Shown here in pieces: positions 1,785 through 53,560 of a stretch of 55,825 nucleotides of DNA (position 1 is its first letter; each line of letters opens with the position of its first letter). Source of the DNA: Candidatus Yanofskybacteria bacterium (GTDB lineage: Bacteria; Patescibacteriota; Minisyncoccia; 2-02-FULL-40-12; GWA2-44-9). Below the pieces are notes generated by a model. It was not told the DNA's origin and made no database searches. It saw only the letters and a program-made list of their open reading frames with translations. The stretch covers positions 1-55,825 of the forward strand of contig JACPNL010000010.1 in assembly GCA_016185505.1 (NCBI GenBank), given 5' to 3'. The translations under genes and the position numbers were made by a program.

Positions 1785-3665
1785 TTATTCCACAGTTGCC
1801 CGAATTCGGCGGATTCCGGCGCTTACGGATTCTTCTTTGGTTATTTTGAACTTGCCTATCTCGGCAGTGTTTGAAACATGAGGTCCTCCGCACAATTCTT
1901 TAGAAAAGAATTGTCCTGAGCTGGTCGAATTAGAGAGTTCGCGGTTAAACGGCTCAACGGCTTTATCCGTTGAGCCGTTTATTGAATTATCGGTTGTTTT
2001 GGGACCGATCGTATAAACTGTTACGCGATCAGGATATTTTTCTTTGAAAAACGCTAAAGCGCCTGATTTTATCGCATCTTCATAAGACATTTCGGTTTTA
2101 GTAACCGGCAGTTCTTTTTTTACAGCATCGTTAACCATATCCTCTACTTGCTTGAGTTCCTCGAGTGTTAATTTACGCGGGAATGTGAAATCAAACCTCA
2201 ACCGTTCCGGGGTTATATCAGAGCCCTGCTGTTTCACCTCTTCTCCAAGAATTTTTCTCAATGCTGCGTGAAGCAAATGTGTAGCGGTATGAAGACGGGT
2301 TTTCTTTTTCATCTCTTCGGCATTGGCGGCGGTCAAATCCCCTTCCGTTATCATGCCATGTCCACCAAATTTTTTCTCCGCTCCGGCGCGGGATATTTCT
2401 TGATGTTTTCTAAATTCCTCATCGAAATTCTCACGAGAAAGCTCTGTTGTTTTTTCTTTTCCTAATTCTTTAATAACTTCAAAAGGTAGGCCGTAACTTT
2501 CGTATAGTTTAAAGGCGTTCTCGGCATTTACGGATGGCATCTTTCCAAGCTCCTTTAGCCCTTGAGATAATGTCTTTTCAAATTTTTCTTTTTCTCGGTC
2601 AAACTCATGAATTATTAAATCGGCATTCAGTTCGGGATAATATTGCCCATAGATCTCTAATATTTTCGCAAAAATATCATGCATTAAAGATAGGTCAGAC
2701 CTGTGGATAAACGACTTCGCAAGTCGTTTATCCACAGGTGGGGTGGATTGAGTGGCGGTATAAAAATAAGTTATCACTCTCCTCATTAGCCGGCGCAAAA
2801 CATAACCCTGCTCTTTGTTTGACGGCCTGACCCCGTCGGTGATAAGAAATGCGATGGCCCGTGAATGGTCGGCGATAATTCTTTTAGCTCTAATATCTAA
2901 CTCCGAGGGCGCGAGTTTGATTATCGGTTCCAAAAGATCCGTTTCAAAAATATTTTTAACTCCCTGTACAACCATAGCAAGACGCTCTAATCCCATACCG
3001 GTGTCTATGCCAGCTGGTTTTAAGTGTTTAAATTTTGAAGGGTCGGTTTCTTTGAGCATTTGCTCTCTATTCCCTTTATAATAAAATTCGTTGAAGACGA
3101 TATTCCAAATCTCAACTCCGTCCACATATATTTCTGTTGTCGGACCGCATGGACCCTCATTCCCGGTCGGGCCCCAGGTGTTATCCTCAATACCCATTTT
3201 CTTAACCTCAATTGCGACGTTGTTGTTTTTAGCTATTTCTTTCCATATCAATTCTGATTCTTCATCTGCGGGCATACCTTCCGAACCGCTGAAAACAGAA
3301 ACGTAGTCAACCTTGAGTCCCAGTTCTTTTGTAATAAATTCGTATGCCCAAGTGATGGATGCTTCTTTCCAATACCCACCAAAAGAAAAATTGCCAAGCA
3401 TTTCGAAAAAAGTGAGATGTGATTCGTCTCCAACTTCGTCTATGTCCGAAGTTCGCATTGATTTCTGAATTGAAACAGTATTCAAGGAACCGAAATCCTT
3501 CATCGCGTCGGCCTCGCCGGTATAGTAGGGCTTGAACTGTTGCATTCCGGCGGTTGTGAAAAGCACCGACGGATCAGTTGGCAAAAGAGAAGATGACTCC
3601 ACCCACTTATGGTTTCTCTTCTCAAAAAAATCTTTAAATTTTTTACGTATCTTTTGATGTGTCAT
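1785..3665 (-). CDS. alaS: alanine--tRNA ligase (short form, no C-Ala domain)
   Basis: LFTTAGMQQFK, HLTFFEMLGNFSFG, IDTGMGLER, editing motifs HTATHLL and ELCGGPH. Confidence 0.97.
   Translation of the reverse strand: MTHQKIRKKFKDFFEKRNHKWVESSSLLPTDPSVLFTTAGMQQFKPYYTGEADAMKDFGSLNTVSIQKSMRTSDIDEVGDESHLTFFEMLGNFSFGGYWKEASITWAYEFITKELGLKVDYVSVFSGSEGMPADEESELIWKEIAKNNNVAIEVKKMGIEDNTWGPTGNEGPCGPTTEIYVDGVEIWNIVFNEFYYKGNREQMLKETDPSKFKHLKPAGIDTGMGLERLAMVVQGVKNIFETDLLEPIIKLAPSELDIRAKRIIADHSRAIAFLITDGVRPSNKEQGYVLRRLMRRVITYFYTATQSTPPVDKRLAKSFIHRSDLSLMHDIFAKILEIYGQYYPELNADLIIHEFDREKEKFEKTLSQGLKELGKMPSVNAENAFKLYESYGLPFEVIKELGKEKTTELSRENFDEEFRKHQEISRAGAEKKFGGHGMITEGDLTAANAEEMKKKTRLHTATHLLHAALRKILGEEVKQQGSDITPERLRFDFTFPRKLTLEELKQVEDMVNDAVKKELPVTKTEMSYEDAIKSGALAFFKEKYPDRVTVYTIGPKTTDNSINGSTDKAVEPFNRELSNSTSSGQFFSKELCGGPHVSNTAEIGKFKITKEESVSAGIRRIRATVE
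2700..2738. repeat. 39-bp palindromic element, in frame in alaS
   Basis: cctgtggataaacgactt-cgc-aagtcgtttatccacagg encodes PVDKRLAKSFIHR. Also present twice in mnmA. Confidence 0.95.
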
Positions 3666-8868: not shown

Positions 8869-9228
8869 TATTTTAATACTTGGGATGAAAATTTAAAGAC
8901 CCCTATTGGGGCCTCTTGTATCTTATCACGAAAAACAAACTCCGTATTTTTCACAAGCTAACACAAAATCTCTGATAAAAGGACCCTCTATCATGTCTAA
9001 TAAATTATGCCGTCTTCCTTGTGTTTTTATCCATGCCCCCGTCTTTTTTAAGAAAGAGGAATTCGGAGAATTTATCCCACGGATAGCGACTTATTACGGA
9101 TAACCGCTCAAGGTGTTCGGGGCCTTGCATAGATAAAAATCGTCCATCAAAAGACACCCGCAACTTTCTCACTTAGCGCTCCGTATACACCCCATAAAAC
9201 AAAAGGTCAACGAGTGTTGATAAGATCA

Positions 9229-9257
9229 TTGACTTTTCACATACCATTTGCTATTCT
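9229..9257 (+). promoter_or_regulatory. sigma70 promoter with no downstream ORF
   Basis: TTGACT-17 nt-TATTCT with extended TG. Confidence 0.55.
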
Positions 9258-9438
9258 TACATCATAAACGGCTTCGGCCTCGAAACACCCGCAAGGGTGT
9301 TTCAGACTTTTAGGGCTTAAAGAGCTTTTACCGCCTTATCCAGTTTATTGAATTGGTCTTCGGGCAGAGTGGCTATTTTATCTAATCCATCATCTGATTT
9401 TCTTGCGTCCCCCTTTGTGACGAATTCGGCCTATAATT

Positions 9439-9477
9439 TCGGGCCGCCCAGAGTCGAACTGGGTCTAACTGGTCCCA
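9439..9477 (-). pseudogene. orphan 3' half of tRNA-Pro(TGG)
   Basis: 39 bp matching 9712-9750 with one mismatch, beginning at the anticodon. Confidence 0.85.
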
Positions 9478-9504
9478 CCCTGAAGTAGAATTTTGCGAAT
9501 CTTG

Positions 9505-9907
9505 TCGGACTGCCCGGATTCGAACCGGGACTAACCTACAACTTTGACCTCTTTCCGTCGGTCAAGTCGCAGGCCCGCCTCATGGCTGAAAATCGCCGAT
9601 TGCGATTTTCAGCATCGCTCCGGCACTTGAATCGTAAAGAAAACATAAAGCAGTTTATGTTTTCTTTACGATTCAAGCATCCCAACCTATGGTAGAATTT
9701 GGCCTAATATGTCGGGCCGCCCAGAATCGAACTGGGTCTAACTGGTCCCAAACCAGTCGTACCACCATCATACGCCGGCCCGATTAAGAGCCAAATTCTA
9801 CCATAGGTCAAGAACGTCTCGCCTGCCCCGCACCAACCCCGCCCCCTTTTTGAATGGCGGTCAGCGGATAAGGTTGGTGCGGGGTGCTACCGTTACACTA
9901 CAGTCCG
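9505..9907 (-). tRNA. split/interrupted tRNA-Pro-like gene (5' half 9907-9884, 3' half 9535-9505)
   Basis: CGGACTG-TA-GTGTAACGGTAGCAC ... TAGTCCCGGTTCGAATCCGGG-CAGTCCG-A. Perfect 7-bp acceptor stem with Pro identity (C1-G72, A73). About 350-nt insert in the anticodon arm. Anticodon not determinable. Confidence 0.75.
9712..9782 (-). tRNA. tRNA-Pro(TGG), nested inside the split tRNA
   Basis: CGGGCCG...ACTGG-TTTGGGA-CCAGT...CCCAGTTCGATTCTGGG-CGGCCCG-A. Confidence 0.93.
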
Positions 9908-9944
9908 GTCTTAACGCAAAATTCACTACGAAACTTAATTTTTG

Positions 9945-10016
9945 TCTCCTCGCGAGGAATCGAACCTCGATTCGCGGCTTAGAAGGCCGCTGTTTTATCC
10001 GTTAAACTACGAGGAG
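9945..10016 (-). tRNA. tRNA-Arg(TCT)
   Basis: CTCCTCG...GCGGC-CTTCTAA-GCCGC...CGAGGTTCGATTCCTCG-CGAGGAG-A. Confidence 0.95.
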
Positions 10017-10336
10017 GTTGATTTTTTGCCTAAATTTAAAAACTGATTATAACTTTTACGTCTGTGACAATTGGCACATCGTATCTTGCACTTTTTAATT
10101 TCTAAGAGTATAGATCTCCAGGAATTATGTCCCGATAACATTTTTGCAATCGGCCTTCTTTTCCGACTAGGATTTATATGATCAAAATCTAGAACTCTAG
10201 GATCTTTTTCCCCACAATCAACACATTTTTTATTTGATAAAAAAGCTGCCATTTGCTCTCTTATCCTAATTCTGTATCTCTTTTGTGCTTTATATAATTG
10301 TTCCCTGTATTTGTATGGCATTTTTGGGTTATACAC
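10007..10336 (-). CDS. HNH endonuclease-like protein
   Basis: CVDCG..LDFDH..KC..RCANCH. The stop codon lies inside the 5' end of tRNA-Arg. Confidence 0.85.
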   Translation of the reverse strand: MYNPKMPYKYREQLYKAQKRYRIRIREQMAAFLSNKKCVDCGEKDPRVLDFDHINPSRKRRPIAKMLSGHNSWRSILLEIKKCKIRCANCHRRKSYNQFLNLGKKSTSS

Positions 10337-10363
10337 TACCTATTCTAACCCGACTTTGATTGC

Positions 10364-10402
10364 ATTACAAGCTATCTGTTCTGTCCATTGAACTACGAGG
10401 GG
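10364..10402 (-). pseudogene. orphan 5' half of a tRNA-Arg-like gene
   Basis: CCCCTCG-TA-GTTCAATGGACAGAAC-A-GATAG-CTTGTAA, with no matching 3' stem or T arm afterwards. Confidence 0.7.
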
Positions 10403-10493
10403 AAATTTTTGTGTTAATTTTACCACATTTTGCCTCGTATATCAAAATTTATGGGGTTTTACTTATTTCATAAAATATGATAAATCATTGTAC

Positions 10494-11849
10494 ATGTCGT
10501 ATCCCTTTGAGCCGTATAAAATAAAGGTGCTAGATTCTATAAAGATCTTGAGCGAAAGCGACCGCGTTCAAATTTTAAAGTCGGCTGCTTATAATCTTTT
10601 TAAAGTTCCTTCCGAAAAAATAACCGTTGACTTGCTCACCGATTCCGGTACATCGGCTCTTTCCCAGGAACAGCTGGCTCAAATGATGCTGGGCGATGAA
10701 TCCTACGCATCGGCAAAAAGTTGGGAGAGATTTGAAACTGCAGTTAAAAATTTTACCGGCAAAAAAGAAGTTATCCCCGTGCATCAGGGCCGAGCGGCAG
10801 AAAAAATTATTGCTGAAATTCTTCTGGAAAAAAACGACATTGCTTTCTCAAATAGTTTTTTTGATACTACAAGGGCGAATTTTGAACATCGAGGAGCGGT
10901 GTGCTTGGATGTCCCTACGGAAAAATCGGCCGATCTTTTGAGGCCAAAATTATTCAAAGGCGATGTTGACACGAAAAAACTTAAAAAGCTTTTAAGCCGC
11001 TATAAAAAACGGGCAAAAATAATCTTAATGACATTAACCAACAATACCGGCGGCGGACAGCCGGCCTCTCTCAAAAATATAAATTCTGCCGCCGCTATAG
11101 CGTCTAAAACAAATCTGACTTTTATTATTGATGCTTGTAGAATCGCTGAAAACGCCTATTTTATTTGGCTTCACGAACAAAAGAAAAAAGGCAACATTAA
11201 ACAAATAATCCGCAATCTTTTTGCACTGACTGACATTGCTTACATGAGCGCTAAAAAAGACGGTTTGGCAAATAGCGGCGGTTTTATCGTTACTAACGAT
11301 AAAATTTTAGCCGCAAAATTAAGAGAGTTGGCGGTACTCTATGAAGGGTTCATTACTTATGGCGGAATGGCGGGCAGAGAAATGGAAACGATAGCTCGCG
11401 GTCTTGAGGAGGTTGTTAGTCCGGCTTATCTTGAACACAGAATCGGTCAAATTGCCTACCTTCATACTGAACTGGCTAAAATTGGCGTTCCGCTGATTCA
11501 TCCTCCTGGCGGACATGCTGTTTATGTTGATGCCGGTAAATTTTTCTCCCACATACCACGAAACGAATTTCCCGGCCAAGCGCTAGTTGTTGCTCTTTAT
11601 CGGGAAGGCGGCATAAGAAGCGTAGAGATCGGCTCTTTAATGCTTGATAAAGCATCCAAATCAGAATTAGTTCGTCTGGCAATCCCGAGAAGAACTTGTA
11701 CTCAATCGCATTTTGATTATGTCGTTGAAATATTTAAAAAAATTCTAGTTAATAAAAAACAGTACAAAGGATTCAAAATAGCTTGGCAACCGTCAACCCT
11801 AAGGCATTTCACGTGTAAATTAAAGCTCACAGAAAAGAAATTCCGGTAA
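10494..11849 (+). CDS. tnaA: tryptophanase (PLP beta-eliminating lyase)
   Basis: DLLTDSGT, HQGRAAE, FDTTR, MSAKKD (PLP Lys), RLAIPRR. C-terminal LRHFT favours TnaA over tyrosine phenol-lyase (LRFFT). Confidence 0.85.
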   Translation: MSYPFEPYKIKVLDSIKILSESDRVQILKSAAYNLFKVPSEKITVDLLTDSGTSALSQEQLAQMMLGDESYASAKSWERFETAVKNFTGKKEVIPVHQGRAAEKIIAEILLEKNDIAFSNSFFDTTRANFEHRGAVCLDVPTEKSADLLRPKLFKGDVDTKKLKKLLSRYKKRAKIILMTLTNNTGGGQPASLKNINSAAAIASKTNLTFIIDACRIAENAYFIWLHEQKKKGNIKQIIRNLFALTDIAYMSAKKDGLANSGGFIVTNDKILAAKLRELAVLYEGFITYGGMAGREMETIARGLEEVVSPAYLEHRIGQIAYLHTELAKIGVPLIHPPGGHAVYVDAGKFFSHIPRNEFPGQALVVALYREGGIRSVEIGSLMLDKASKSELVRLAIPRRTCTQSHFDYVVEIFKKILVNKKQYKGFKIAWQPSTLRHFTCKLKLTEKKFR

Positions 11850-25004: not shown

Positions 25005-27044
25005 TTGATTATGATGTTACTCAATAAAAAAGCAACGCGTTTTTTAACTATTTTAATACTCTTGGTTATTTCTGGAGCTTATTTAACTTCAGATATTTCT
25101 GCCGCCCCAAACGAAGAATCAACCGTCATTCAAATAAACAATCAAAACCCCGGCCTGATAAGCAGCACTCCGGATATTTTTACCAACCTTGTTGCCTGCG
25201 CTCTGTGGCAAAAAGACAGCAACTGGGGACGAAACGGCAAACGAGGCAATCCTAACGATTTAAGCAATGACGCTATCGCCTATAAAAATTCTGCCAGCAT
25301 CGGCCTTGGCGGAGTGGATATTATTGATATTATAGGCGGCGTTGACGGACCCGACCCCCAGCCCGGTTGGATTGATGTCACCCAGCCGGGTGTTGCCGGC
25401 GTTTGGGTCAAGCCAGATCCCTGTAGCGGCGCCGGAGGGCCGCCCGGTCCGGGCGGTGGAGGCGGCGGTGTTCCAGTCGGCTCAAATCTTGGTATTAGCG
25501 GTGATACATTCACTATCGGCGGAGTTTCTAAATTTTTGGTTCTAGCTTCATATTTTGACGCCTTAGACGCTTCTAACCTCGGCGGCGATTTAGATTATCT
25601 AAAATCAAAAGGAATTGACGGGATAAGAATATTCCCGAACTGGTGGGATTTTGATCCGGATAGCCAGACCTTTAATCCCGGAAACACCCTAATGGACGTA
25701 AATGGGAATATTAGTAGTAGCCGCATGAGCGATCTGTTAAGCGTTTTAAGCGCGGCAAAGAGCAGAAACATGATAGTAGACGTAACTTTTGCCAGAGAAA
25801 CAGTGCCCGGACCATGCGACGGGGACAGAATCCCAAATGTAATGTGCATGTCCGAATTTATGGAAGGAACAGAATCGGCAGTAAGACAGATTAACTCGGC
25901 CGGATACGGCAATGTGTTTTTTGACATCCAAAACGAATTTGAACAATTCAACTTTTCAAATTCTGACTTAATAGCGATTAAAAATAGAATTAAAAGTGTA
26001 AATTCAAATTTTATAGTTTCCGCTTCAGAAGTCGGGGGCGGTTCCGGCATCGCGGTGAGCACCGGCATGGACATAGTGAACACTCACGAACCCAGAGACA
26101 ATTGGCCCTCAAGTGTCTCTAGCGTCGTCTCCTCTGCGACTTCAACCAGAAAGCCAATTTATCTTGGCGAGTCGGCCAGAGTTGGCGATGGAGCCGACAG
26201 TACTCAAGAGTTCATCACCGCTGTAAGCGATACAAAAAGAGCCGGCGGAGCGGCTTGGACTTTTCATAGCCGAGCTAATTTTAATCTGGACAACTCATCT
26301 TTACAGAACAATTATAACCAAATAGAGAAAGATTTTCTTGACCAGTTTTTGTCTTCATTAAACAGGGTCACTTGGGGCGCAACGGGAATAACGAGCGGAG
26401 GCGGAGGAACCCTACCACCCCCCGGTCCCGGCCCGGGGCCAGCGCCAGAACCATCCGGCCCTCCAATTATTAACGGCATTAGCCCGCAAAAAGCGGTCGT
26501 GGGAGAAACGGTAGAAATTATCGGTTCTAATCTGACAACATCCGTAAAACTAGAAAATCTTGAAAACGAAAATTTCTATACAATTACCGCGTTTGTTCGT
26601 CAAAATAATACGATTGCTTCCTTTCAAGTACCTGATCTTTCAGGCGGTGTTTACAAAATTTTTAGTTTAAGTCCGCAAGGAGACACGGAAAGTCCGCAAA
26701 ATCTTACAATCAGGTCAGGCGGCAATCCTTTCGGTCAGTCGGTCCAGCCCACCATCCCAACTGAAGGACTATTGGGATTCGGTCAACTTATAGCAATGAT
26801 CTTCACCTGGTCTCTCAATATTCTGGGCATTGTTGTTTTCGTAATGATATTCTTTGCCGGATTTCAGTGGTTCACCGCCGCCGGCAATACGGCAAAAGTA
26901 AATGAGGCCAAGTCCAGAATAACCAATGCGATCACCGGAGCTCTTATCCTTCTGGCGGCGTGGATAATATTATATACGATAAACCCTGATCTGGTCGGGG
27001 GCACGTTCACTTTGCCGGGGGCAGGGATAGAAAATAGTAATTAA
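25005..27044 (+). CDS. exported GH-A (GH5-like) glycoside hydrolase + IPT domain + C-terminal T4SS-type pilin
   Basis: GIDGIRIF, DIQNE, NTHEPR and PIYLGE motifs. P/G linkers. C-terminal G..WFTAAGN...AK..ITNA..G pilin-like hairpin. Confidence 0.7.
   Translation: MIMMLLNKKATRFLTILILLVISGAYLTSDISAAPNEESTVIQINNQNPGLISSTPDIFTNLVACALWQKDSNWGRNGKRGNPNDLSNDAIAYKNSASIGLGGVDIIDIIGGVDGPDPQPGWIDVTQPGVAGVWVKPDPCSGAGGPPGPGGGGGGVPVGSNLGISGDTFTIGGVSKFLVLASYFDALDASNLGGDLDYLKSKGIDGIRIFPNWWDFDPDSQTFNPGNTLMDVNGNISSSRMSDLLSVLSAAKSRNMIVDVTFARETVPGPCDGDRIPNVMCMSEFMEGTESAVRQINSAGYGNVFFDIQNEFEQFNFSNSDLIAIKNRIKSVNSNFIVSASEVGGGSGIAVSTGMDIVNTHEPRDNWPSSVSSVVSSATSTRKPIYLGESARVGDGADSTQEFITAVSDTKRAGGAAWTFHSRANFNLDNSSLQNNYNQIEKDFLDQFLSSLNRVTWGATGITSGGGGTLPPPGPGPGPAPEPSGPPIINGISPQKAVVGETVEIIGSNLTTSVKLENLENENFYTITAFVRQNNTIASFQVPDLSGGVYKIFSLSPQGDTESPQNLTIRSGGNPFGQSVQPTIPTEGLLGFGQLIAMIFTWSLNILGIVVFVMIFFAGFQWFTAAGNTAKVNEAKSRITNAITGALILLAAWIILYTINPDLVGGTFTLPGAGIENSN
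26754..27001 (+). repeat. 248-bp direct repeat copy 1 (pilin module)
   Basis: Near-identical to 28925-29172. Confidence 0.93.
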
Positions 27045-27070
27045 GTAATTAGGTAATTGTGTAATTTTTT

Positions 27071-29221
27071 ATGAAAAAATATTTACCCATCGGCTTCTTT
27101 TCTCTCCTTTATCTTTTTAGTATCTCTCCTGTAGCCGTTGCAAATACTTTGCCCGCGCCTAACCACTCTATTTTTTTTGGTTACTATCATGCGGACGCTC
27201 AATACGGCGATTTTAAAAATGAAGTCAAAGATTACACGAACACTCAAATAATTATCGGCGATAGCTGGATCAGGCCGCCTGATGTCGCGGAATCGGATAT
27301 CCAGAAATTAAACGAAGCTCTTAGCGAAACCGCCGCTCTCGGCCAAAAAATTGTTCTTATTCCTTCGGGTGATTTAGATATTATACTGAATGCGGCTGCG
27401 CCATTTTGGGATAATGTCGCGTTTATTTATTTTGCCGATGAACCGAATTGGGATAAAGCCACAACCGAGGAAAATATCGGCTCATTTAAAAATAAAATTC
27501 GCAGGGCCGGGCTTTCTCAAAAAGAAATTGCCATAAATTATACTCCTGAACAGATACTTTCAGGAACGGGGTACCAAGCCGGTAATTTGAATATAGTCGG
27601 ATTTGAAGCATATGTTGACCCCGCGCAACAAAATAACCAGGATATCGTCGCTGACTTAAACGCGCAGATAGACAATCTCAAACAAAAAATAGGCAATAAA
27701 CAAATGTTCATCGTAATTCAGGCCTACGACAGAAATGGGGATTGGAAAAATATAACCTCACTCCAAAATATTCAAATACCGCCCTATCTGGCCGCTTATA
27801 ATGACGAACGTGTCATCGGATTGCTGATGTTCTCTTATGCCAGACCGGGAGGCACGCGGGATAACCCTATCTTAGCAGAACAGCATCGTTTGATCTGGCA
27901 AGCGATGCAAGGATTAACTGTTGACGTTGATCCTAAGAATATACCGGCCGTTGCGCCTACAAGCGTCTGGAGTCCTTCTCAAACCAATAACGGCTGGTGG
28001 CCGTCTTTGTCCCCGGACGGCAAATACGTTGCCTATGGTAATTTCGGCGAGAGCTGGGTAACTGACCTTTCAACTGGACAAAACTATGACCTTTCAAAGC
28101 CAGCAGGCCTGCCAGATGGAGCCCGTTGCAGGGGCGGACAATGGATAACATCAAGCAAGGTCACTTTTATTTGCGACAGCATTCCGGGGATAACTGGATT
28201 TTACCGATATGAAGCAGCCATTGGCGAGTGGATAGCGAGAAAAACCGATGACGACCCGAACAACGTAGTGAGCAGTATATTTGTCGCAAAAGACGGCCAC
28301 TGGGCATCTTTCTTAGCTCTAACCAGAATTATTAAAGACAACACAGTCCTTACCGATAACCAACCCGGAGGGGCAATAGCCATAAGCGGTGACTTGCTAG
28401 TAAACGCCTGCACCAACGAGAACCAGCAGATCTGCGTATGGGACAGGACTAACCTTTCTACGTCTTACGATGTCAGAACTCCCTTATTTGAAATGGATAT
28501 GGAAGATGGATATATTACTTATGGCGGATTTGGACCGATCCGAGGTATAGACCCGAGCGGAAAAGATATTGATCTGACGGCAACTGCCTGGAAACGAGAA
28601 GGATCGCCAAGAGTATTAATGGTCAACGGACAACCTTGGGTCGCCACTTATACTTGGGACGACACGTTGGGAGTTTCCAACGTATTGATCCGGCCGTGGG
28701 GAGAAAGAAAAAGTATCGTCTTGCAAATGGATGCGGCATCTTTAAGCGTGGTTTACACAAACGGAAACTTCATAGTTGCGGCTAATAACGATCGGGGCGG
28801 ATTAATAGTTCAAACCATCCCCGCGGATTCGCCAAGAGTTGATCTATCAGGCGGCTTGCCGTCAGAAACACCGGGGTTAAGTCCTGCAAACAAAAAGAGC
28901 TTTTCAAGTCCGGTTTTACCCGTTATCCCCACTGAAGGCCTCCCTTCTTTCGGCCAACTTATAGCCACGATCTTCACCTGGTCTCTCAATATTTTGGGCA
29001 TTGTGGTTTTTGTCATGATATTCTTTGCCGGATTTCAGTGGTTCACCGCCGCCGGCAATACGGCAAAAGTAAATGAGGCCAAGTCCAGAATAACCAATGC
29101 GATCACCGGAGCTCTTATACTTCTTGCGGCGTGGATAATATTATATACGATAAACCCTGATCTGGTCGGGGGAGTACTTACGCTACCGGGGGTAGGAACG
29201 GAAACAGAAACTGGAAATTAA
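27071..29221 (+). CDS. exported GH-like TIM barrel + beta-propeller + C-terminal T4SS-type pilin
   Basis: Signal peptide, FADEP, PSLSPDGKYVAY (TolB/PD40-like), same C-terminal pilin module. Confidence 0.65.
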   Translation: MKKYLPIGFFSLLYLFSISPVAVANTLPAPNHSIFFGYYHADAQYGDFKNEVKDYTNTQIIIGDSWIRPPDVAESDIQKLNEALSETAALGQKIVLIPSGDLDIILNAAAPFWDNVAFIYFADEPNWDKATTEENIGSFKNKIRRAGLSQKEIAINYTPEQILSGTGYQAGNLNIVGFEAYVDPAQQNNQDIVADLNAQIDNLKQKIGNKQMFIVIQAYDRNGDWKNITSLQNIQIPPYLAAYNDERVIGLLMFSYARPGGTRDNPILAEQHRLIWQAMQGLTVDVDPKNIPAVAPTSVWSPSQTNNGWWPSLSPDGKYVAYGNFGESWVTDLSTGQNYDLSKPAGLPDGARCRGGQWITSSKVTFICDSIPGITGFYRYEAAIGEWIARKTDDDPNNVVSSIFVAKDGHWASFLALTRIIKDNTVLTDNQPGGAIAISGDLLVNACTNENQQICVWDRTNLSTSYDVRTPLFEMDMEDGYITYGGFGPIRGIDPSGKDIDLTATAWKREGSPRVLMVNGQPWVATYTWDDTLGVSNVLIRPWGERKSIVLQMDAASLSVVYTNGNFIVAANNDRGGLIVQTIPADSPRVDLSGGLPSETPGLSPANKKSFSSPVLPVIPTEGLPSFGQLIATIFTWSLNILGIVVFVMIFFAGFQWFTAAGNTAKVNEAKSRITNAITGALILLAAWIILYTINPDLVGGVLTLPGVGTETETGN
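28925..29172 (+). repeat. 248-bp direct repeat copy 2 (pilin module)
   Basis: Near-identical to 26754-27001. Confidence 0.93.
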
Positions 29222-51435: not shown

Positions 51436-51650
51436 GGAAAATAGTTAAGAGAGAATAGAAAATGGTATAGAAACATAGAAATAGGTTGTTGGAAATTGGA
51501 AAATGGTATAGAAAGTGGAAAATGGAAAAAGGGTTAAGAAAAAGGGAGGAAAGAAGATGAAAAAACGGTTAATTTCTATTTTCTTATTTACTAACCAATT
51601 TCTAATTTCTATCTTCCATACCAACTTCCATTTTCCATATCACCAATTTC
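51436..51650. repeat. empty foldback element (purine arm / pyrimidine arm, about 7-nt period)
   Basis: Arms resemble those flanking the four-helix-bundle gene (tagaaataggttgt, aaatggtatagaaa). Confidence 0.8.
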
Positions 51651-51676
51651 TGGATTGCGCGTGGCGCCAACGAATA

Positions 51677-53560
51677 ATGTCATATAAAAAACTCTCCATA
51701 TTAGTAATATTAGTTGCGCTGGTTTTGTCCATAACAAGCTTGTGGGACGACTCTTTCATCGTTGATGAGGTACCTCATGTCGGAGCCGGATATTCATATA
51801 TTACAAAAGGCGATATGCGGTTAAATCCCGAACACCCACCTCTGGCAAAAGATATAGCCGGAGCAGCTTTATCTTTTCTGGCTATAGATCAAACGGTATT
51901 TTCAACACAATATTGGGTTACTGATATAAATGGACAATGGAATTTCGGAAGAATTTTGATATATAACTCATCAAATGACGTTAATGCTATCACGAGAACC
52001 GCTAAAACGACGATGCTCATATTTTTCGTATTATCGGCTATCCTGATATACCGGTGGACGCGAGAACGATATGGAGATAGGGCGGCCTTCATCGCAACTT
52101 TGTTGTTTTCTTTCTCGCCCACGGTTCTGGCCCACTCGCGTTTTGTCACCACCGATATGCCGGCGCTGTTCGGAGTGCTTCTCGGTACTTACTTTTTTAT
52201 CAAATATTTACAGAAGCCGTCTCGAAGAACATTCTGGCTCGCGGTTCTGGCATTCGGCGTTGCCCAACTAACCAAATTTTCCGTTGTGCTTCTCGCGCCT
52301 CTATTCATATTGATGGTAATCGCGTGGTGCATAGCAAATTCATTATCTTTCAGAAAGTCGGCTGTTTTAGCCACTCGCTCACTGGTGTTGATGACGACGG
52401 GAATCATTCTTGTTGTCTGGCCGGTTTACGCTCTCCATACGATGAATTATCCGCCGGAGAAACAAAGCGCCGACACGGAATTTCATCTTGGTTCTTACGG
52501 CAACCGTTTATTTGCTGATCCCGTTGTATGGGCGTCAGACAAACCAGTCATAAGACCACTCGCCTATTATGCCACCGGAATTCTTATGGTTAATCAGAGA
52601 GCCATAGGCGGCAATAACACATTCTTTCTCGGCGAAGTAAGAAACTATGCCTGGAAACATTATTTTCCCGTCGTGTATGGGATAAAGGAACCAATTGCGT
52701 TTTGGGGATTGGTGGTAATCGTACTTTTGGCTTTGAGCCTGAAGGTTAAAAATTGCCCCGCACCAAACTTTTCCGCTGACCCCGCAGGAAGTTTTCCCGC
52801 TGACCGCCAATCAGATAGAGGGCGGACTTCCAGCGGGGCAGGCCGCCATTCAGAAAAGAGGCGGGTTTGGTACGGGGTTAGTTTTTGTTTCCAATCGCTT
52901 CGCTCTTGGACAAAAACTAACTTCGTTGAGTTCTCAATGCTGTTGTGGCTCGCGATATATTGGTATTTAAGTATTCGTGCCAATTTGAACATCGGGGTTA
53001 GGCACCTACTGCCCACTTACGGGTTTGTATTTATATTACTGGCTGGCCAGCTAGAGCGTATTACGTATTACGTATTACGTATTAAGAGGAAAATAGTCCT
53101 TACTACTTACTGCTTACTACTTACTGCTTTGCTTGGTTGGTATATCGTAGATGTCGTCCGAGTACACCCCTACTATTTAACTTATTTCAATCAACTGGCG
53201 GGCGGACCGGCGGGTGGCCACCGATACGCCGTTGATTCTAACTTGGACTGGGGACAGGACTTAAAGCGGTTAGCAGACTGGGTTGAAAAACGAGGGATAA
53301 ATAAAATTCACTTGGATTATTTTGGTTGGGCTGACCAAGGTTATTATTTAAAAGACAAACTTGTATGGATAAACGCAGGAACATATAAAGACGCTCGTGA
53401 CTTTCTCGCTCAAAATCCTAATGGTGGGCATATCGCCGTATCGGCTTCATTCTACACGGGTTCACGAGGCGACCCGGTCAACAACTACATCTGGCTGGAC
53501 GCGTATCGTCCAATAGCAACTATCGGGAACTCTATATTTGTGTGGAAAATTAGACCTTGA
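51677..53560 (+). CDS. GT39/ArnT-like membrane glycosyltransferase
   Basis: DEVPH, NPEHPPL, AHSRFVTTD, DSNLDWGQDL. The upstream ORF extension is repeat DNA. Confidence 0.9.
   Translation: MSYKKLSILVILVALVLSITSLWDDSFIVDEVPHVGAGYSYITKGDMRLNPEHPPLAKDIAGAALSFLAIDQTVFSTQYWVTDINGQWNFGRILIYNSSNDVNAITRTAKTTMLIFFVLSAILIYRWTRERYGDRAAFIATLLFSFSPTVLAHSRFVTTDMPALFGVLLGTYFFIKYLQKPSRRTFWLAVLAFGVAQLTKFSVVLLAPLFILMVIAWCIANSLSFRKSAVLATRSLVLMTTGIILVVWPVYALHTMNYPPEKQSADTEFHLGSYGNRLFADPVVWASDKPVIRPLAYYATGILMVNQRAIGGNNTFFLGEVRNYAWKHYFPVVYGIKEPIAFWGLVVIVLLALSLKVKNCPAPNFSADPAGSFPADRQSDRGRTSSGAGRHSEKRRVWYGVSFCFQSLRSWTKTNFVEFSMLLWLAIYWYLSIRANLNIGVRHLLPTYGFVFILLAGQLERITYYVLRIKRKIVLTTYCLLLTALLGWYIVDVVRVHPYYLTYFNQLAGGPAGGHRYAVDSNLDWGQDLKRLADWVEKRGINKIHLDYFGWADQGYYLKDKLVWINAGTYKDARDFLAQNPNGGHIAVSASFYTGSRGDPVNNYIWLDAYRPIATIGNSIFVWKIRP
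52756..52877. repeat. nested palindromic elements in frame in the glycosyltransferase
   Basis: The outer ccccgcacc...ggtacgggg element contains a 63-bp sister element (52780-52842). The outer element matches 9822-9884 (reverse strand). Confidence 0.85.

Follow-up and report, generated by a model that had tools for sequence, protein, structure and literature searches.

Organization of the locus

The stretch of DNA analysed here (the window) comprises 55,825 nucleotides of contig JACPNL010000010.1 from a Candidatus Yanofskybacteria bacterium. On its minus strand, a small ORF predicted to encode an HNH endonuclease runs directly into an intact tRNA-Arg(UCU) gene, and is preceded by a conserved signal, a fragment derived from a tRNA-Arg gene and a promoter-like sequence. 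In the direction of reading, the features of this part of the locus are:

10445-10417, minus strand: putative sigma70-like promoter (TTGATA, 17 nt, TAAAAT, with TG before the -10; 10/12 in a consensus scan)
10402-10364, minus strand: orphan 5' fragment derived from tRNA-Arg(UCU) (acceptor 5' strand, D arm, decayed anticodon stem and loop-like CTTGTAA)
10351-10326, minus strand: upstream signal conserved in the HNH family (GGGTTAGAAT, spacer, TATAACCC; it ends 4 nt before the ATG)
10321-10007, minus strand: predicted HNH endonuclease ORF (104 amino acids plus stop; TAG at 10009-10007 inside the tRNA)
10016-9944, minus strand: intact tRNA-Arg(UCU), the partner of the HNH ORF (ARAGORN; Rfam tRNA, 66.9 bits)

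This tRNA-Arg is the only one found in the 55.8-kb window. The ORF has two candidate start codons, GTG at 10336 and ATG at 10321, the latter being the family start MPYK. Its TAG stop codon coincides with nucleotides 8-10 of the tRNA. A preliminary description of this DNA had already placed the stop within the first 10 nt of the tRNA, and all the features that it listed are present where it put them, far above chance; the overlap, however, turned out to be the norm of the family and not special to the window.

The predicted HNH protein

Alignment of 29 family sequences revealed the invariant motifs CxxC, DH and CxNCH. The residues Cys38, Cys41, Cys87 and Cys90 are identical in all 29 sequences, forming two CxxC zinc-binding pairs that flank the core, and Asp52, His53, Asn89 and His91 are likewise invariant. 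By analogy with known HNH motifs, His53 of the D-H pair is assigned as the putative catalytic histidine, and Asn89 and His91 as the likely distal N/H of the motif. The protein matches two PHROG HNH families at 1.2e-23 and 1.2e-21. The match to Pfam PF01844 (E=0.011, 16.3 bits) lies below the cut-off of 21.4, and 11 of the 29 family members give a Pfam HNH match at E<=0.01. Searches of NCBIfam and of PDB sequences with the window protein yielded no match. A PADLOC defence-system search gave no match to the gene either, and its membership of a defence system was dropped on this ground. The structure model has a pLDDT of 81.9, with strands at residues 49-53 and 83-87 and a helix at 88-98. In a Foldseek comparison with the PDB the top matches are HNH nucleases (Cap5, Gme HNH, GVE2 HNH and the Cas9 HNH domain), with a best E-value of only 0.25. 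The product is predicted to be a small phage-type HNH nuclease, the support for the HNH fold being indirect. Among 300 protein candidates for the family, 299 scored at E<=0.001; the 120 candidates listed share about 60-81% identity, except for one 100% match.

Conservation of the HNH and tRNA-Arg(UCU) unit

A genome scan found tblastn-confirmed relatives of the ~103-aa protein in at least 584 species genomes of Patescibacteria. The detailed comparison covers the best 80 of these relatives, or 81 loci when the window is added. All 80 loci come from MAGs and encode proteins 54-72% identical to the window HNH, and the named lineages among them are Patescibacteria groups, apart from two labelled proteobacteria. 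The loci were picked through the HNH gene itself, hence all of them carry it. A co-oriented tRNA-Arg(UCU) lies directly 3' of the HNH gene in 79 of these 80 best loci, comprising 77 whole tRNA-Arg(TCT) genes and the genes of loci L034 and L064, which begin as expected and are then cut by a contig end. In the remaining locus, L078, the contig stops inside the HNH gene and no tRNA-Arg is seen. The stop codon is formed by tRNA nucleotides 8-10 in 47/79 loci, as in the window, the offset between ORF and tRNA is -10 in 45/77, and the ORF overlaps the tRNA, with its stop inside, in 59/77. Linkage of HNH to tRNA-Arg(UCU) and overlap between the two are family-wide. The preliminary description had tied the HNH gene to tRNA genes and proposed a survey of family neighbourhoods; that survey bore out the tie, in 79 of the 80 patescibacterial loci and in 14 of 19 records of phage relatives (see below).

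The HNH gene is flanked on both sides by tRNA genes, or by a small conserved gene on one side and tRNA-Arg on the other, and no intron was found around it. The small upstream gene is kept in 32 of the 81 loci. Other neighbours vary. A tRNA-Val(tac) occurs within 1 kb of the unit downstream on the same strand (18 loci) or the opposite strand (10), and upstream on the same strand (11) or the opposite strand (3). A tRNA-Pro is found near the HNH gene in 8/81 loci, upstream on the opposite strand in five and downstream on the same strand in three. The unit therefore keeps its internal structure while its place and orientation relative to neighbouring tRNA genes vary. When 10 window proteins were compared with the 80 loci, L074 was the only locus to share the flanking genes of the window (AlaRS and RNase Y). 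The HNH copy of L044 contains an in-frame stop. Our literature searches found no description, for Patescibacteria or for the Candidate Phyla Radiation at large, of a unit made of HNH and tRNA-Arg(UCU); a candidate preprint names both, but in unconnected passages.

Signals upstream of the HNH gene

The signal ahead of the ORF recurs in most HNH relatives as GGTTAGAAy-N4-5-TGnTATAATCC. In an alignment of 67 loci, conservation reaches 90% or more in the columns GGTTAGA and TA.AA.C. The element TGnTATAAT is present upstream of the HNH gene in 53/81 loci, and in 41 of these 53 it lies 6 nt from the start codon. The ORF is thus preceded by a conserved signal. It could be drawn as a GGGTTA/TAAYCC hairpin, of which 93% of the pairs form; the covariation was no better than in shuffles, and it was treated as a DNA signal. 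A reading of the stretch before the ORF as the decayed T arm of an orphan tRNA was likewise set aside, since this stretch is the conserved HNH signal of nearly all loci. The second candidate promoter, at 10445-10417, lies just upstream of the orphan tRNA-Arg fragment, and a promoter-like stretch also precedes the fragment of L074, as judged by eye in the alignment. From its sequence, this element may function as a sigma70-like promoter.

The orphan tRNA-Arg fragment

The fragment at 10402-10364 is 75% identical over 36 nt to the 5' half of the resident tRNA-Arg (repeat family D2). A profile of 78 tRNA-Arg(TCT) 5' halves matches 10401-10376, corresponding to tRNA positions 2-27, at E=1.1e-5 in 710 kb (nhmmer), and the remaining nucleotides 10375-10364 keep only the loop pattern CTTnTAA. 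The fragment had been described as a tRNA-Arg 5' half ending at its anticodon loop; the half itself is real, whereas an end at the loop is plausible but weaker, and the fragments of L044, L074 and L060 end near tRNA positions 18-28, short of the anticodon loop. The fragment is identical to the tRNA-Arg of L019 at 34/38 positions, and the resident copy, with 28/39, ranks only 34th of 78. The fragment thus appears to stem from a tRNA-Arg allele other than the resident one.

All seven non-tRNA matches of the 5'-half profile at E<0.05 adjoin an HNH gene. Four of the seven, those of the window, L044, L074 and L060, are co-oriented fragments 68-126 nt upstream of the HNH start; an upstream fragment occurs in only 4/81 loci. 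A profile of tRNA-Arg 3' halves revealed no orphan 3' half in the HNH loci, its one non-tRNA match at E<0.2 being the L034 tRNA at a contig end. tRNA fragments beside the HNH gene are a recurrent feature of such loci. The fragments of the window and L074 are identical at 23 of 27 positions, though neutral sites between the two are saturated (0.29-0.33). An inherited decaying relic would have been randomised; the fragments would therefore be under constraint, or would have arisen separately in each lineage. The L074 fragment stands without any tRNA-Pro debris. A further repeat, D3, of 21 nt and 76% identity after tRNA-Arg and before the fragment, was discarded, as about a dozen chance matches per 1.2 kb are expected by a rough estimate.

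The tRNA-Pro region

Downstream of tRNA-Arg, an intact tRNA-Pro gene is nested within the parts of a second, broken one:

9907-9884, minus strand: 5' part of the broken outer tRNA-Pro-like gene (tRNA positions 1-24/25)
9884-9826, minus strand: GC-rich palindromic repeat with 13-bp perfect arms, at tRNA position 25/26 of the outer gene
9808-9790 and 9703-9685, minus strand: 19-bp perfect inverted repeats enclosing tRNA-Pro(UGG), the right arm being part of the tRNA trailer
9782-9711, minus strand: intact tRNA-Pro(UGG) (ARAGORN; Rfam, 47 bits)
9677-9626 (24-bp arms) and 9613-9585 (12-bp arms), minus strand: two perfect hairpins inside the outer gene (inverted-repeat search)
9543-9488, minus strand: 3' part of the outer tRNA-Pro-like gene with trailer (repeat family D1, 64% identity)
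9477-9422, minus strand: orphan tRNA-Pro(UGG) 3' half (9477-9439) with trailer, the second unit of a 66-nt tandem with 9543-9488

The intact tRNA-Pro is 91% identical to that of L074. The 5' part of the outer gene is identical at 20 of 24 positions to the tRNA-Pro of L019 and of L034 (by eye, among eight tRNA-Pro(TGG) compared), and its 3' part at 9534-9504 matches positions 42-72 of the Pro profile at E=0.001. The acceptor strands of the two parts (the 5' part against 9511-9505) are complementary at 7/7 positions, and the anticodon arm is absent. Nested Pro tRNAs had been proposed: the inner one is intact and both outer parts exist, but the outer gene lacks the anticodon arm and was not called by ARAGORN, which, with introns of up to 600 nt allowed, called only the two intact tRNAs. 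An Rfam search of 9200-10600 found no intron family at E<=10. As there is neither an Rfam match nor an ARAGORN intron call, an intron, of group I or of another kind, was rejected for both split tRNAs. A tmRNA or other tRNA-like RNA was rejected for the outer Pro structure, since ARAGORN reported nothing beyond five tRNA genes for the window and Rfam gave no such family here. The fold of 9920-9430 has a z of -10.9.

The orphan Pro 3' half, also part of the preliminary description, was confirmed. Including 18 nt of trailer, it is 91% identical over 56 nt to 9750-9695 (D1; BLAST E=1.5e-14), and it matches positions 33-71 of the Pro profile at E=7e-7. Together with the other copies it makes up three related "3' half plus trailer" units, 64-91% identical, of which two stand in the 66-nt tandem. 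By eye, it differs from the inner intact copy at one of 39 tRNA positions, and the differing base is shared with L074; the half is therefore of the type proper to this lineage and was duplicated locally and recently. Such repeats, running from the anticodon past the tRNA 3' end and in tandem, are reportedly the usual anatomy of tRNA attachment sites, and the 3' halves could be scars of a lost tRNA-Pro-targeting element unrelated to the HNH gene. We consider this history quite unlikely: between the intact tRNA-Pro and the repeated 3' parts there is hairpin DNA alone, about 230 nt of it, the similarity extends some 25 nt beyond the tRNA and then restarts, more like a tandem duplication, and a scan of 24 large ORFs of the window detected no integrase or recombinase domain. 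The latter result also agrees with the preliminary description, in which the locus was free of integrases.

Four perfect inverted repeats of 12-24 bp within 400 nt, in what is probably a metagenome assembly as judged from relatives that are all MAGs, might also suggest that strain variants were assembled into a chimera or that the region was distorted by amplification. Such an origin is hardly credible. One of the hairpins, the palindromic repeat, belongs to a family with a second copy at 52756-52880, about 43 kb away, which is self-nested and diverged; the three Pro units differ from one another as old duplicates do; and 79 independent assemblies have a matching HNH and tRNA-Arg part. For the hairpins at 9677-9585, no further copy was found within the window at E<0.5.

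The preliminary description had joined all these features into one homing cassette, 10402-9439, which replaced the DNA between cuts in the anticodon loops of a resident tRNA-Arg and a resident tRNA-Pro and brought in the HNH gene with new, putatively cleavage-resistant copies of both tRNAs. Both orphan pieces do exist, each starting or ending near the anticodon loop, and the Arg fragment appears to come from an allele other than the resident tRNA-Arg. In L062, tRNA-Arg is followed by tRNA-Pro 11 nt on, making an ancestral Arg-Pro tandem possible, and on a gene-order reading the block from promoter to tRNA-Pro is inverted relative to L074, with ends that coincide with the two orphan pieces. However, only HNH and tRNA-Arg are constant among the loci, and tRNA-Pro stands outside the conserved unit, in 8/81 loci and on either side and in either orientation. 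The orphan Pro pieces are private to the window, being found in none of the seven other loci with a tRNA-Pro, and L074 has its Arg fragment without them. The orphan Pro half, moreover, looks like a recent local duplicate and is one of three related units, and the outer Pro gene is broken by a repeat that is dispersed in the window. The tRNA-Pro debris is not part of the HNH unit, and a single cassette is very improbable.

Phage relatives and comparison with known systems

HNH genes in phage tRNA arrays are known and poorly understood. According to two published accounts, no other coding genes are as widespread in phage tRNA arrays as those of HNH endonucleases, which are suspected of spreading tRNA genes (PMC5966550, PMC6409571). 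The tblastn search with the window HNH matched 478 phage records, of which 205 cover at least 80% of the query, with a best E of 4e-17. These relatives are 37-47% identical to the window protein, and its look-alikes in the Atlas are phage HNH clusters (0.97). In 14 of 19 phage records examined, the HNH gene is followed on its 3' side, within 240 nt, by a co-oriented tRNA, namely in 7 of 9 hand-picked top matches (<=240 nt) and 7 of 11 taken evenly down the ranking (<=40 nt), ANB28 being in both sets. The ORF-tRNA offsets of Francesca (-10), Jada (-13), crAss001 (-14), KoPa-4 (-15) and Wofford (-38) are overlaps. In their tRNA arrays, the phage relatives are thus placed like the window gene, immediately 5' of tRNA genes, and these 14 of 19 records support the idea that the HNH gene lives on tRNA genes. 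Duplicated tRNAs flanking phage HNH genes (Met/Met, Gly/Gly, Thr/Thr) were considered as recent copies and rejected, only 41-48 of about 72 nt being identical.

Similar to the window family, the HNH genes in the tRNA arrays of cluster M and C mycobacteriophages, Streptomyces Stanwilliamsviridae, crAss001 (gp8) and FelixO1-like phages are free-standing small ORFs 5' of a co-oriented tRNA, and they also often end inside it. In contrast to them, the window family is chromosomal, in free-living or episymbiotic bacteria, is single-copy per locus beside one tRNA, Arg(UCU), where the phage genes adjoin many different tRNAs, is shorter (~103 aa against ~125-200 aa), and, with its synonymous sites saturated, is conserved in many candidate phyla-level groups.

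Phage T4 SegB is likewise encoded by a free-standing nuclease gene between tRNA genes; it is, however, a GIY-YIG and not an HNH enzyme, and acts in phage co-infection with an activity shown experimentally, whereas the window protein is known from sequence. tRNA-targeting integrative elements, which use integrases and duplicate the 3' part of the tRNA, also leave a partial tRNA copy beside an intact gene and keep the tRNA functional after insertion. The piece beside the HNH gene, unlike theirs, is always a tRNA 5' part (five fragments against no 3' part), and no integrase turned up among the 24 large ORFs scanned. Group I introns with homing ORFs in the anticodon loops of bacterial tRNAs likewise place a nuclease ORF between a tRNA 5' half and the rest of the gene; the window, by contrast, lacks an intron core, its ORF runs on into a complete tRNA, and the orphan fragment could not pair with the resident 3' half.

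Age, selection and composition of the HNH gene

Among 66 HNH sequences (2093 pairs), 4-fold degenerate sites are 0.317 identical against 0.270 expected at saturation, whereas amino-acid identity is 0.655. Because synonymous sites are saturated while the proteins remain 66% identical, the HNH unit is ancient and selected, and the gene is old and under strong purifying selection. At this age, the unit is no recent arrival. In the 31 loci that share the small upstream gene with one another, the HNH proteins are 66% identical and that neighbour only 19%, and HNH distances track the neighbour weakly (rho 0.15; Mantel 13/999). The HNH tree, built without L044, L078 and L080, which are too short, has good support for 4 of 75 inner branches, as there are few columns. 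Saturation, 66% identity and an upstream gene kept in 32/81 loci are at least as compatible with a host gene inherited vertically as with a selfish gene.

The composition of the gene looks foreign. Its GC content is 0.38 against 0.45 in the flanks, and is lower than that of the flanks in 76/81 loci. AGA and AGG make up 57% of its arginine codons against 27% in the flanking frames, which were taken from stop to stop with a minimum of 200 codons and include some non-genes, and the AGA/AGG share of the HNH gene exceeds the GC3 prediction (44%) in 67/81 loci. Position-locked AGR codons were looked for and rejected, no arginine position being consistently AGR.

These data bear on a different explanation, in which the HNH gene has been domesticated, its protein now has a cellular function linked to tRNA-Arg(UCU), and all movement has ceased. 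We hold this to be somewhat unlikely. As possible variants, ribosomes on the AGA/AGG-rich ORF might enter the tRNA, where they would compete with folding and with processing by RNase P, giving a translation-coupled feedback, or the nuclease might act in tRNA or DNA metabolism; the Arg fragment would be either a leader element that is conserved or a side effect of local duplication. The purifying selection at saturated synonymous sites and a conservation far above that of the neighbour gene (66% against 19%) argue for such a role, as do the specific partner, tRNA-Arg(UCU) in 79/80 loci, the AGA/AGG share above both the flanks and the GC3 prediction, the stop codon within the tRNA in 59/77 loci, and the Arg fragment kept between the window and L074 despite saturated neutral sites. 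However, no arginine position is consistently AGR, the flank statistics include frames that are not genes, and a mechanism of the leader-peptide type needs no conserved nuclease residues. The low GC content in 76/81 loci and the in-frame stop of the L044 copy also speak against domestication. In addition, the phage relatives adjoin many different tRNAs; therefore, the placement would be a habit of the family and not an Arg-specific device.

Proposed history of the locus

Based on these comparisons, we propose that the window probably holds an ordinary copy of a conserved HNH and tRNA-Arg(UCU) unit, with the Arg fragment as the remnant of an earlier gene and the Pro debris as the product of a separate local history. 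In this unit, a phage-type free-standing HNH gene lies directly 5' of tRNA-Arg(UCU) and is read into it, so that U8-A9-G10 of the tRNA supply the stop codon. The upstream signal may act as an extended -10 promoter giving a leaderless mRNA, and HNH and tRNA-Arg would be carried on one transcript, from which RNase P processing of the tRNA would strip the stop codon off the ORF, thereby holding HNH expression low. The protein is presumably, or descends from, a homing-type nuclease whose landing site would be the 5' edge or 5' half of the tRNA gene. The Arg 5' fragment with its own promoter would then be what is left of an earlier tRNA-Arg(UCU), the unit having been copied into or in front of that gene. 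Downstream, a tRNA-Pro-like gene may have been split by the dispersed palindromic repeat and other hairpin DNA, with the working tRNA-Pro(UGG) now inside it and the "3' half plus trailer" units duplicated in tandem.

A more far-reaching version, whose parts taken jointly we regard as unlikely, would make the phage-derived HNH homing endonuclease a drive-like or addictive passenger of tRNA-Arg(UCU) throughout the history of a large share of the Patescibacteria. The unit would supply the promoter of tRNA-Arg, and the stop codon taken from the tRNA would let RNase P processing gate expression of the HNH gene. The nuclease would still re-invade HNH-free or divergent tRNA-Arg alleles taken up as DNA, leaving co-oriented 5' tRNA fragments that would also provide an upstream homology arm when the unit is copied again. 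If true, this version would account for an ORF rich in AGR codons and in AT, for a unit that has flipped repeatedly among tRNA genes, and for fragments of younger appearance than their genomes.

Implications

In the annotation of Patescibacteria, the ~103-aa ORF that precedes tRNA-Arg(UCU) is to be treated as a real gene starting at MPYK. The family obeys in these bacteria the placement rule of phages, directly 5' of a tRNA and with a stop codon often borrowed from it, and is frozen, under strong selection, beside one tRNA across hundreds of genomes of a major uncultured lineage. With its large natural data set and its simple protein of 104 aa, it lends itself to the questions of what tRNA-associated HNH nucleases recognise, whether a selfish nuclease can persist or be domesticated over deep time, and whether tRNA processing can gate the expression of an upstream ORF.

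Organization of the locus

The sequence elements listed in a preliminary description of this locus were all found at their reported positions, with match statistics far from chance. On the minus strand a promoter, a tRNA-Arg fragment, a conserved signal, the HNH ORF and an intact tRNA-Arg are followed by the tRNA-Pro pieces.

Features of the locus, in order along the minus strand
10445-10417, minus: sigma70-like promoter (TTGATA, 17 nt, TAAAAT, with TG), directly upstream of the tRNA-Arg fragment
10402-10364, minus: tRNA-Arg-like 5' fragment, matched by a profile of 78 tRNA-Arg 5' halves
10351-10326, minus: conserved 26-nt upstream signal
10321-10007, minus: HNH ORF; its TAG stop is nucleotides 8-10 of tRNA-Arg(TCT)
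10016-9944, minus: intact (resident) tRNA-Arg(TCT)
9907-9884, minus: outer tRNA-Pro-like gene, 5' 24-25 nucleotides
between the two parts of the outer gene, minus: perfect hairpins, about 340 nt, around the intact tRNA-Pro
9782-9711, minus: intact tRNA-Pro(TGG), enclosed by the perfect hairpins
9534-9504 (tRNA part), minus: outer tRNA-Pro-like gene, 3' part with trailer
9477-9439 (tRNA part), minus: orphan tRNA-Pro 3' half with a trailer like that of the outer gene

Outside this locus the sequence resembles an ordinary patescibacterial chromosome, with Pfam matches including the alanyl-tRNA synthetase (AlaRS), dihydrouridine synthase, RNase Y, phosphoglycerate mutase, tRNA methyltransferase and DNA polymerase III gamma/tau families and pilin-domain proteins. 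Two neighbouring large ORFs at 25005-29221 (679 and 716 aa) each end in a type IV secretion pilin-like domain, an arrangement typical of Patescibacteria surface proteins.

The HNH protein family

The protein search gave E<=0.001 for 299 of 300 scored candidates, mostly 100-105 aa long. The 120 matches listed are about 60-81% identical to the window protein, with one exception at 100%, and all lineage-naming entries among them belong to Patescibacteria groups. The family start, MPYK, corresponds to the ATG at 10321 in the window, and the '..YNP..' extensions of some database entries are translated conserved upstream DNA. Two CxxC pairs, a D-H pair and CxNCH are invariant in the family. The match of the window protein to the Pfam HNH model falls below its cut-off, and searches of NCBIfam, PADLOC and PDB sequences gave no match. 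Two PHROG HNH families match the protein at 1e-23 and 1e-21, and its look-alikes in the Atlas are phage HNH clusters. The AlphaFold model (pLDDT 81.9) contains the expected strand-strand-helix core, and its nearest PDB structures are HNH nucleases, none of them significant. Support for the predicted HNH endonuclease is thus good but indirect.

Linkage to tRNA-Arg(UCU)

In a single scan of 185,579 species genomes at least 584 HNH relatives were confirmed, and the best 80 loci were retained. ARAGORN placed tRNA-Arg(TCT) directly 3' of the HNH gene, on the same strand, in 77 of these 80. Two more (L034 and L064) lie on contigs that stop 44 and 31 nt past the HNH gene, with the first 38 nt of the tRNA visible, and the L078 contig stops within the HNH gene. 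Therefore, this survey of HNH neighbourhoods found tRNA-Arg(UCU) wherever it could be visible, in 79 of 79 loci. Measured from the stop codon, the tRNA start lies at -10 in 45 of the 77 loci, and L034 and L064 have this value too; 59 of the 77 show a negative offset and 18 an offset of +1 to +71. The location of the HNH stop inside tRNA-Arg, first reported for the window, is therefore the family norm. The family of putative nucleases really is associated with a tRNA gene and integrase-free; its members may still home or may have been domesticated.

Among 66 full-length HNH genes, identity at 4-fold degenerate sites is 31.7% against 27.0% expected at saturation, and protein identity is 65.5%. 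These comparisons show an old gene under strong constraint, and replace the picture of a recent cassette with that of an ancient, conserved HNH and tRNA-Arg unit; they are as compatible with horizontal movement as with its absence. The commonest upstream neighbour, absent from that position in the window, is a gene for a small predicted membrane protein (about 100-140 aa, ending ..(V/I)DPS), which lies just upstream of the HNH gene in 32 of 81 loci (e.g. L014, L022 and L038). Across 31 loci with this neighbour the mean identity is 19% for the neighbour versus 66% for HNH. Only 4 of 75 inner branches of the HNH protein tree are well supported, and HNH and neighbour-gene distances show a weak positive correlation (rho 0.15; Mantel 13 of 999). 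The G+C content of the HNH gene is below that of its flanks in 76 of 81 loci (0.38 vs 0.45). AGA and AGG make up 57% of its arginine codons versus 27% in flanking frames (81 loci), exceeding the GC3 prediction in 67 of 81 loci; no arginine position is fixed as AGR in the family. The excess is notable in that the adjoining tRNA reads AGA and, by wobble, AGG.

The HNH and tRNA-Arg unit moves as a block among tRNA genes. Within 1 kb, tRNA-Val(tac) lies downstream on the same strand in 18 loci and on the opposite strand in 10, and upstream on the same strand in 11 and on the opposite strand in 3. For tRNA-Pro(tgg), 5 loci have the gene upstream in opposite orientation, and 3, the window among them, have it downstream in the same orientation; the same paired arrangements are seen for tRNA-His, tRNA-Phe and tRNA-Gly. 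L074, another Yanofskybacteria locus, is the only one of the 80 sharing flanking genes with the window (amino-acid identity 63% for AlaRS and 73% for RNase Y). On our reading of the gene orders, the block of promoter, fragment, HNH, tRNA-Arg and tRNA-Pro is inverted in the window relative to L074.

Phage relatives

A tblastn search against phages gave 478 records at 37-47% identity. Nine top hits, picked from different host genera, formed a first set; in seven of them a tRNA in the same orientation follows the HNH gene within 240 nt (Paradiddles +118, Jada -13, Tribute +6, Francesca -10, Vibrio D254 +2, LilhomieP +240, crAss001 -14), the other two being ANB28 and Phrank15. A second set comprised 12 rows evenly spaced over the full ranking, of which 11 were examined; Quasimodo was omitted as a near-duplicate of Astraea, and ANB28 is common to both sets. 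A co-oriented tRNA overlaps the gene or lies within 40 nt in 7 of the 11 (Wofford, BPS17L1, Astraea, EP1, Aeromonas 4_4572, Bobbio and KoPa-4) and is absent from that range in ANB28, S-RIM12, VLCpiM5a and Tomas (4/11). Combined, 14 of 19 distinct records have a co-oriented tRNA 3' of HNH. The phage relatives thus follow the same placement rule as the window family, directly 5' of a co-oriented tRNA.

In crAss001, the Streptomyces phages Jada and Wofford, the Rhodococcus phage Francesca and the Pseudomonas phage KoPa-4 (loci L083, L085, L088, L090 and L099), the HNH ORF as annotated extends 10-38 nt into the tRNA gene that follows. In Jada, Wofford, crAss001, Paradiddles and Astraea, tRNAs for the same amino acid flank HNH on both sides; the flanking pairs compared are not near-identical.

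According to passages of two papers, no coding genes are more widespread in the tRNA arrays of mycobacteria and phages than those for HNH endonucleases, and these are suspected, by analogy with T4 SegB, of spreading tRNA genes (PMC5966550, PMC6409571). Given the placement in phage relatives and these published genes, the kind of element is already known. The literature searches turned up no account of an HNH gene fixed next to a single tRNA across a whole bacterial lineage.

Upstream signal and expression

The signal upstream of the ORF reads GGTTAGAAy, 4-5 nt, TGnTATAATCC. Of 81 loci, 53 contain TGnTATAAT, and 41 of these have 6 nt between its end and the start codon; the window has a TATAAC variant, shared with L021, L036, L050, L053, L075 and L076. 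Between signal and HNH start there is no room for a ribosome-binding site. Because the 'n' is variable and the single possible hairpin in the signal lacks covariation, the signal fits an extended -10 promoter that would yield a leaderless HNH mRNA. Because the ORF extends into the tRNA in 59 of 77 loci, a separate tRNA promoter would have no space there, and tRNA-Arg is presumably produced from the HNH transcript. An RNase P cut at tRNA +1 would then strip the HNH message of its stop codon.

The tRNA-Pro side

The orphan Pro half is matched at E=7e-7 by a tRNA-Pro profile and at E=1.5e-14 by BLAST within the window, where three related units of tRNA-Pro 3' half plus a trailer of about 25 nt are found. 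The outer and orphan units form a 66-nt tandem, with the next unit restarting at the anticodon after each trailer. The outer gene belongs to the ordinary U8-A9 type; a GC-rich palindromic element (9826-9884; about 59 nt with 13-bp arms) splits it at position 25/26. A second copy (52756-52880), nested inside another copy, sits in a PMT_2-family glycosyltransferase ORF (51515-53560) whose reading frame stays open. The repeat looks like a small mobile hairpin element able to insert into its own loop. The same ORF contains a short tandem array of a 7-nt unit at 53055-53085 (ACGTATT, about four copies). A 19-bp perfect inverted repeat, built from the tRNA's own trailer, flanks the working tRNA-Pro on both sides, and the remaining Pro-side hairpins have no other copy within the window. 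In the working tRNA-Pro(UGG) of the window (9711-9782) and L074 (3897-3968), G8 and C9 replace the usual U8 and A9; the window gene reaches only 47 bits against the Rfam tRNA model and escaped the whole-window gathering-threshold run.

We read the Pro side as the product of local duplication and of the insertion of repeat elements into a tRNA cluster prone to recombination. Less likely alternatives are an integrase scar and a misassembly. No integrase domain occurs among the 24 large window ORFs scanned, and neither Rfam nor ARAGORN with introns allowed detected an intron signature at the locus. The orphan half differs from the intact inner tRNA at 1 of 39 positions, in the T loop, where it has the base of L074. 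The orphan Pro pieces occur in the window only and in none of the seven other loci with tRNA-Pro near HNH. Thus the Pro half does not hold as the other boundary of the cassette. The tRNA-Pro side has a history separate from the HNH unit, which is HNH plus tRNA-Arg only; the association of an integrase-free HNH gene with tRNA and the tRNA-Arg footprint are what stand of the initial interpretation.

The tRNA-Arg fragment

The window fragment is matched at E=1.1e-5 by the 5'-half profile in a search of 710 kb. All seven non-tRNA matches at E<0.05 lie beside an HNH gene: two contig-cut tRNAs, one fragment directly after the L044 HNH gene, and four fragments (window, L044, L074 and L060) that precede the HNH start by 68-126 nt in the same orientation. 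No orphan tRNA-Arg 3' half was found, the single 3'-half-profile match below E=0.2 being the contig-cut L034 tRNA. In L044 (4900-5460), HNH has an in-frame stop in the conserved AQK motif; besides the upstream fragment, a second, fused to the HNH 3' end, breaks off near the anticodon loop, and a complete tRNA-Arg lies 71 nt beyond it.

The window fragment is identical to the functional tRNA-Arg of L019 at 34 of 38 positions (25 of 26 over the first 26 nt) versus 28 of 39 for the resident tRNA-Arg, which ranks 34th of 78. In L044, L074 and L060 the resident tRNA-Arg ranks only 48th to 60th against its own fragment. Recent copying of the neighbouring tRNA therefore does not account for the fragments. 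The tRNA-Arg 5' half is genuine and resembles what a displaced tRNA-Arg allele would leave behind. The strong promoter directly upstream is as expected for a former tRNA gene, and a comparable one, identified by eye, precedes the L074 fragment (about 3060-3100).

The window (10376-10402) and L074 (3110-3136) fragments are identical at 23 of 27 positions despite saturation (0.29-0.33) of the 4-fold sites in AlaRS and RNase Y, the genes that both loci share, so a simple decaying relic does not fit. Either the fragment is under constraint in the window/L074 clade, or similar tRNA-Arg alleles gave rise to it independently, and not long ago, in the two lineages. If the latter, HNH-free alleles would have existed recently.
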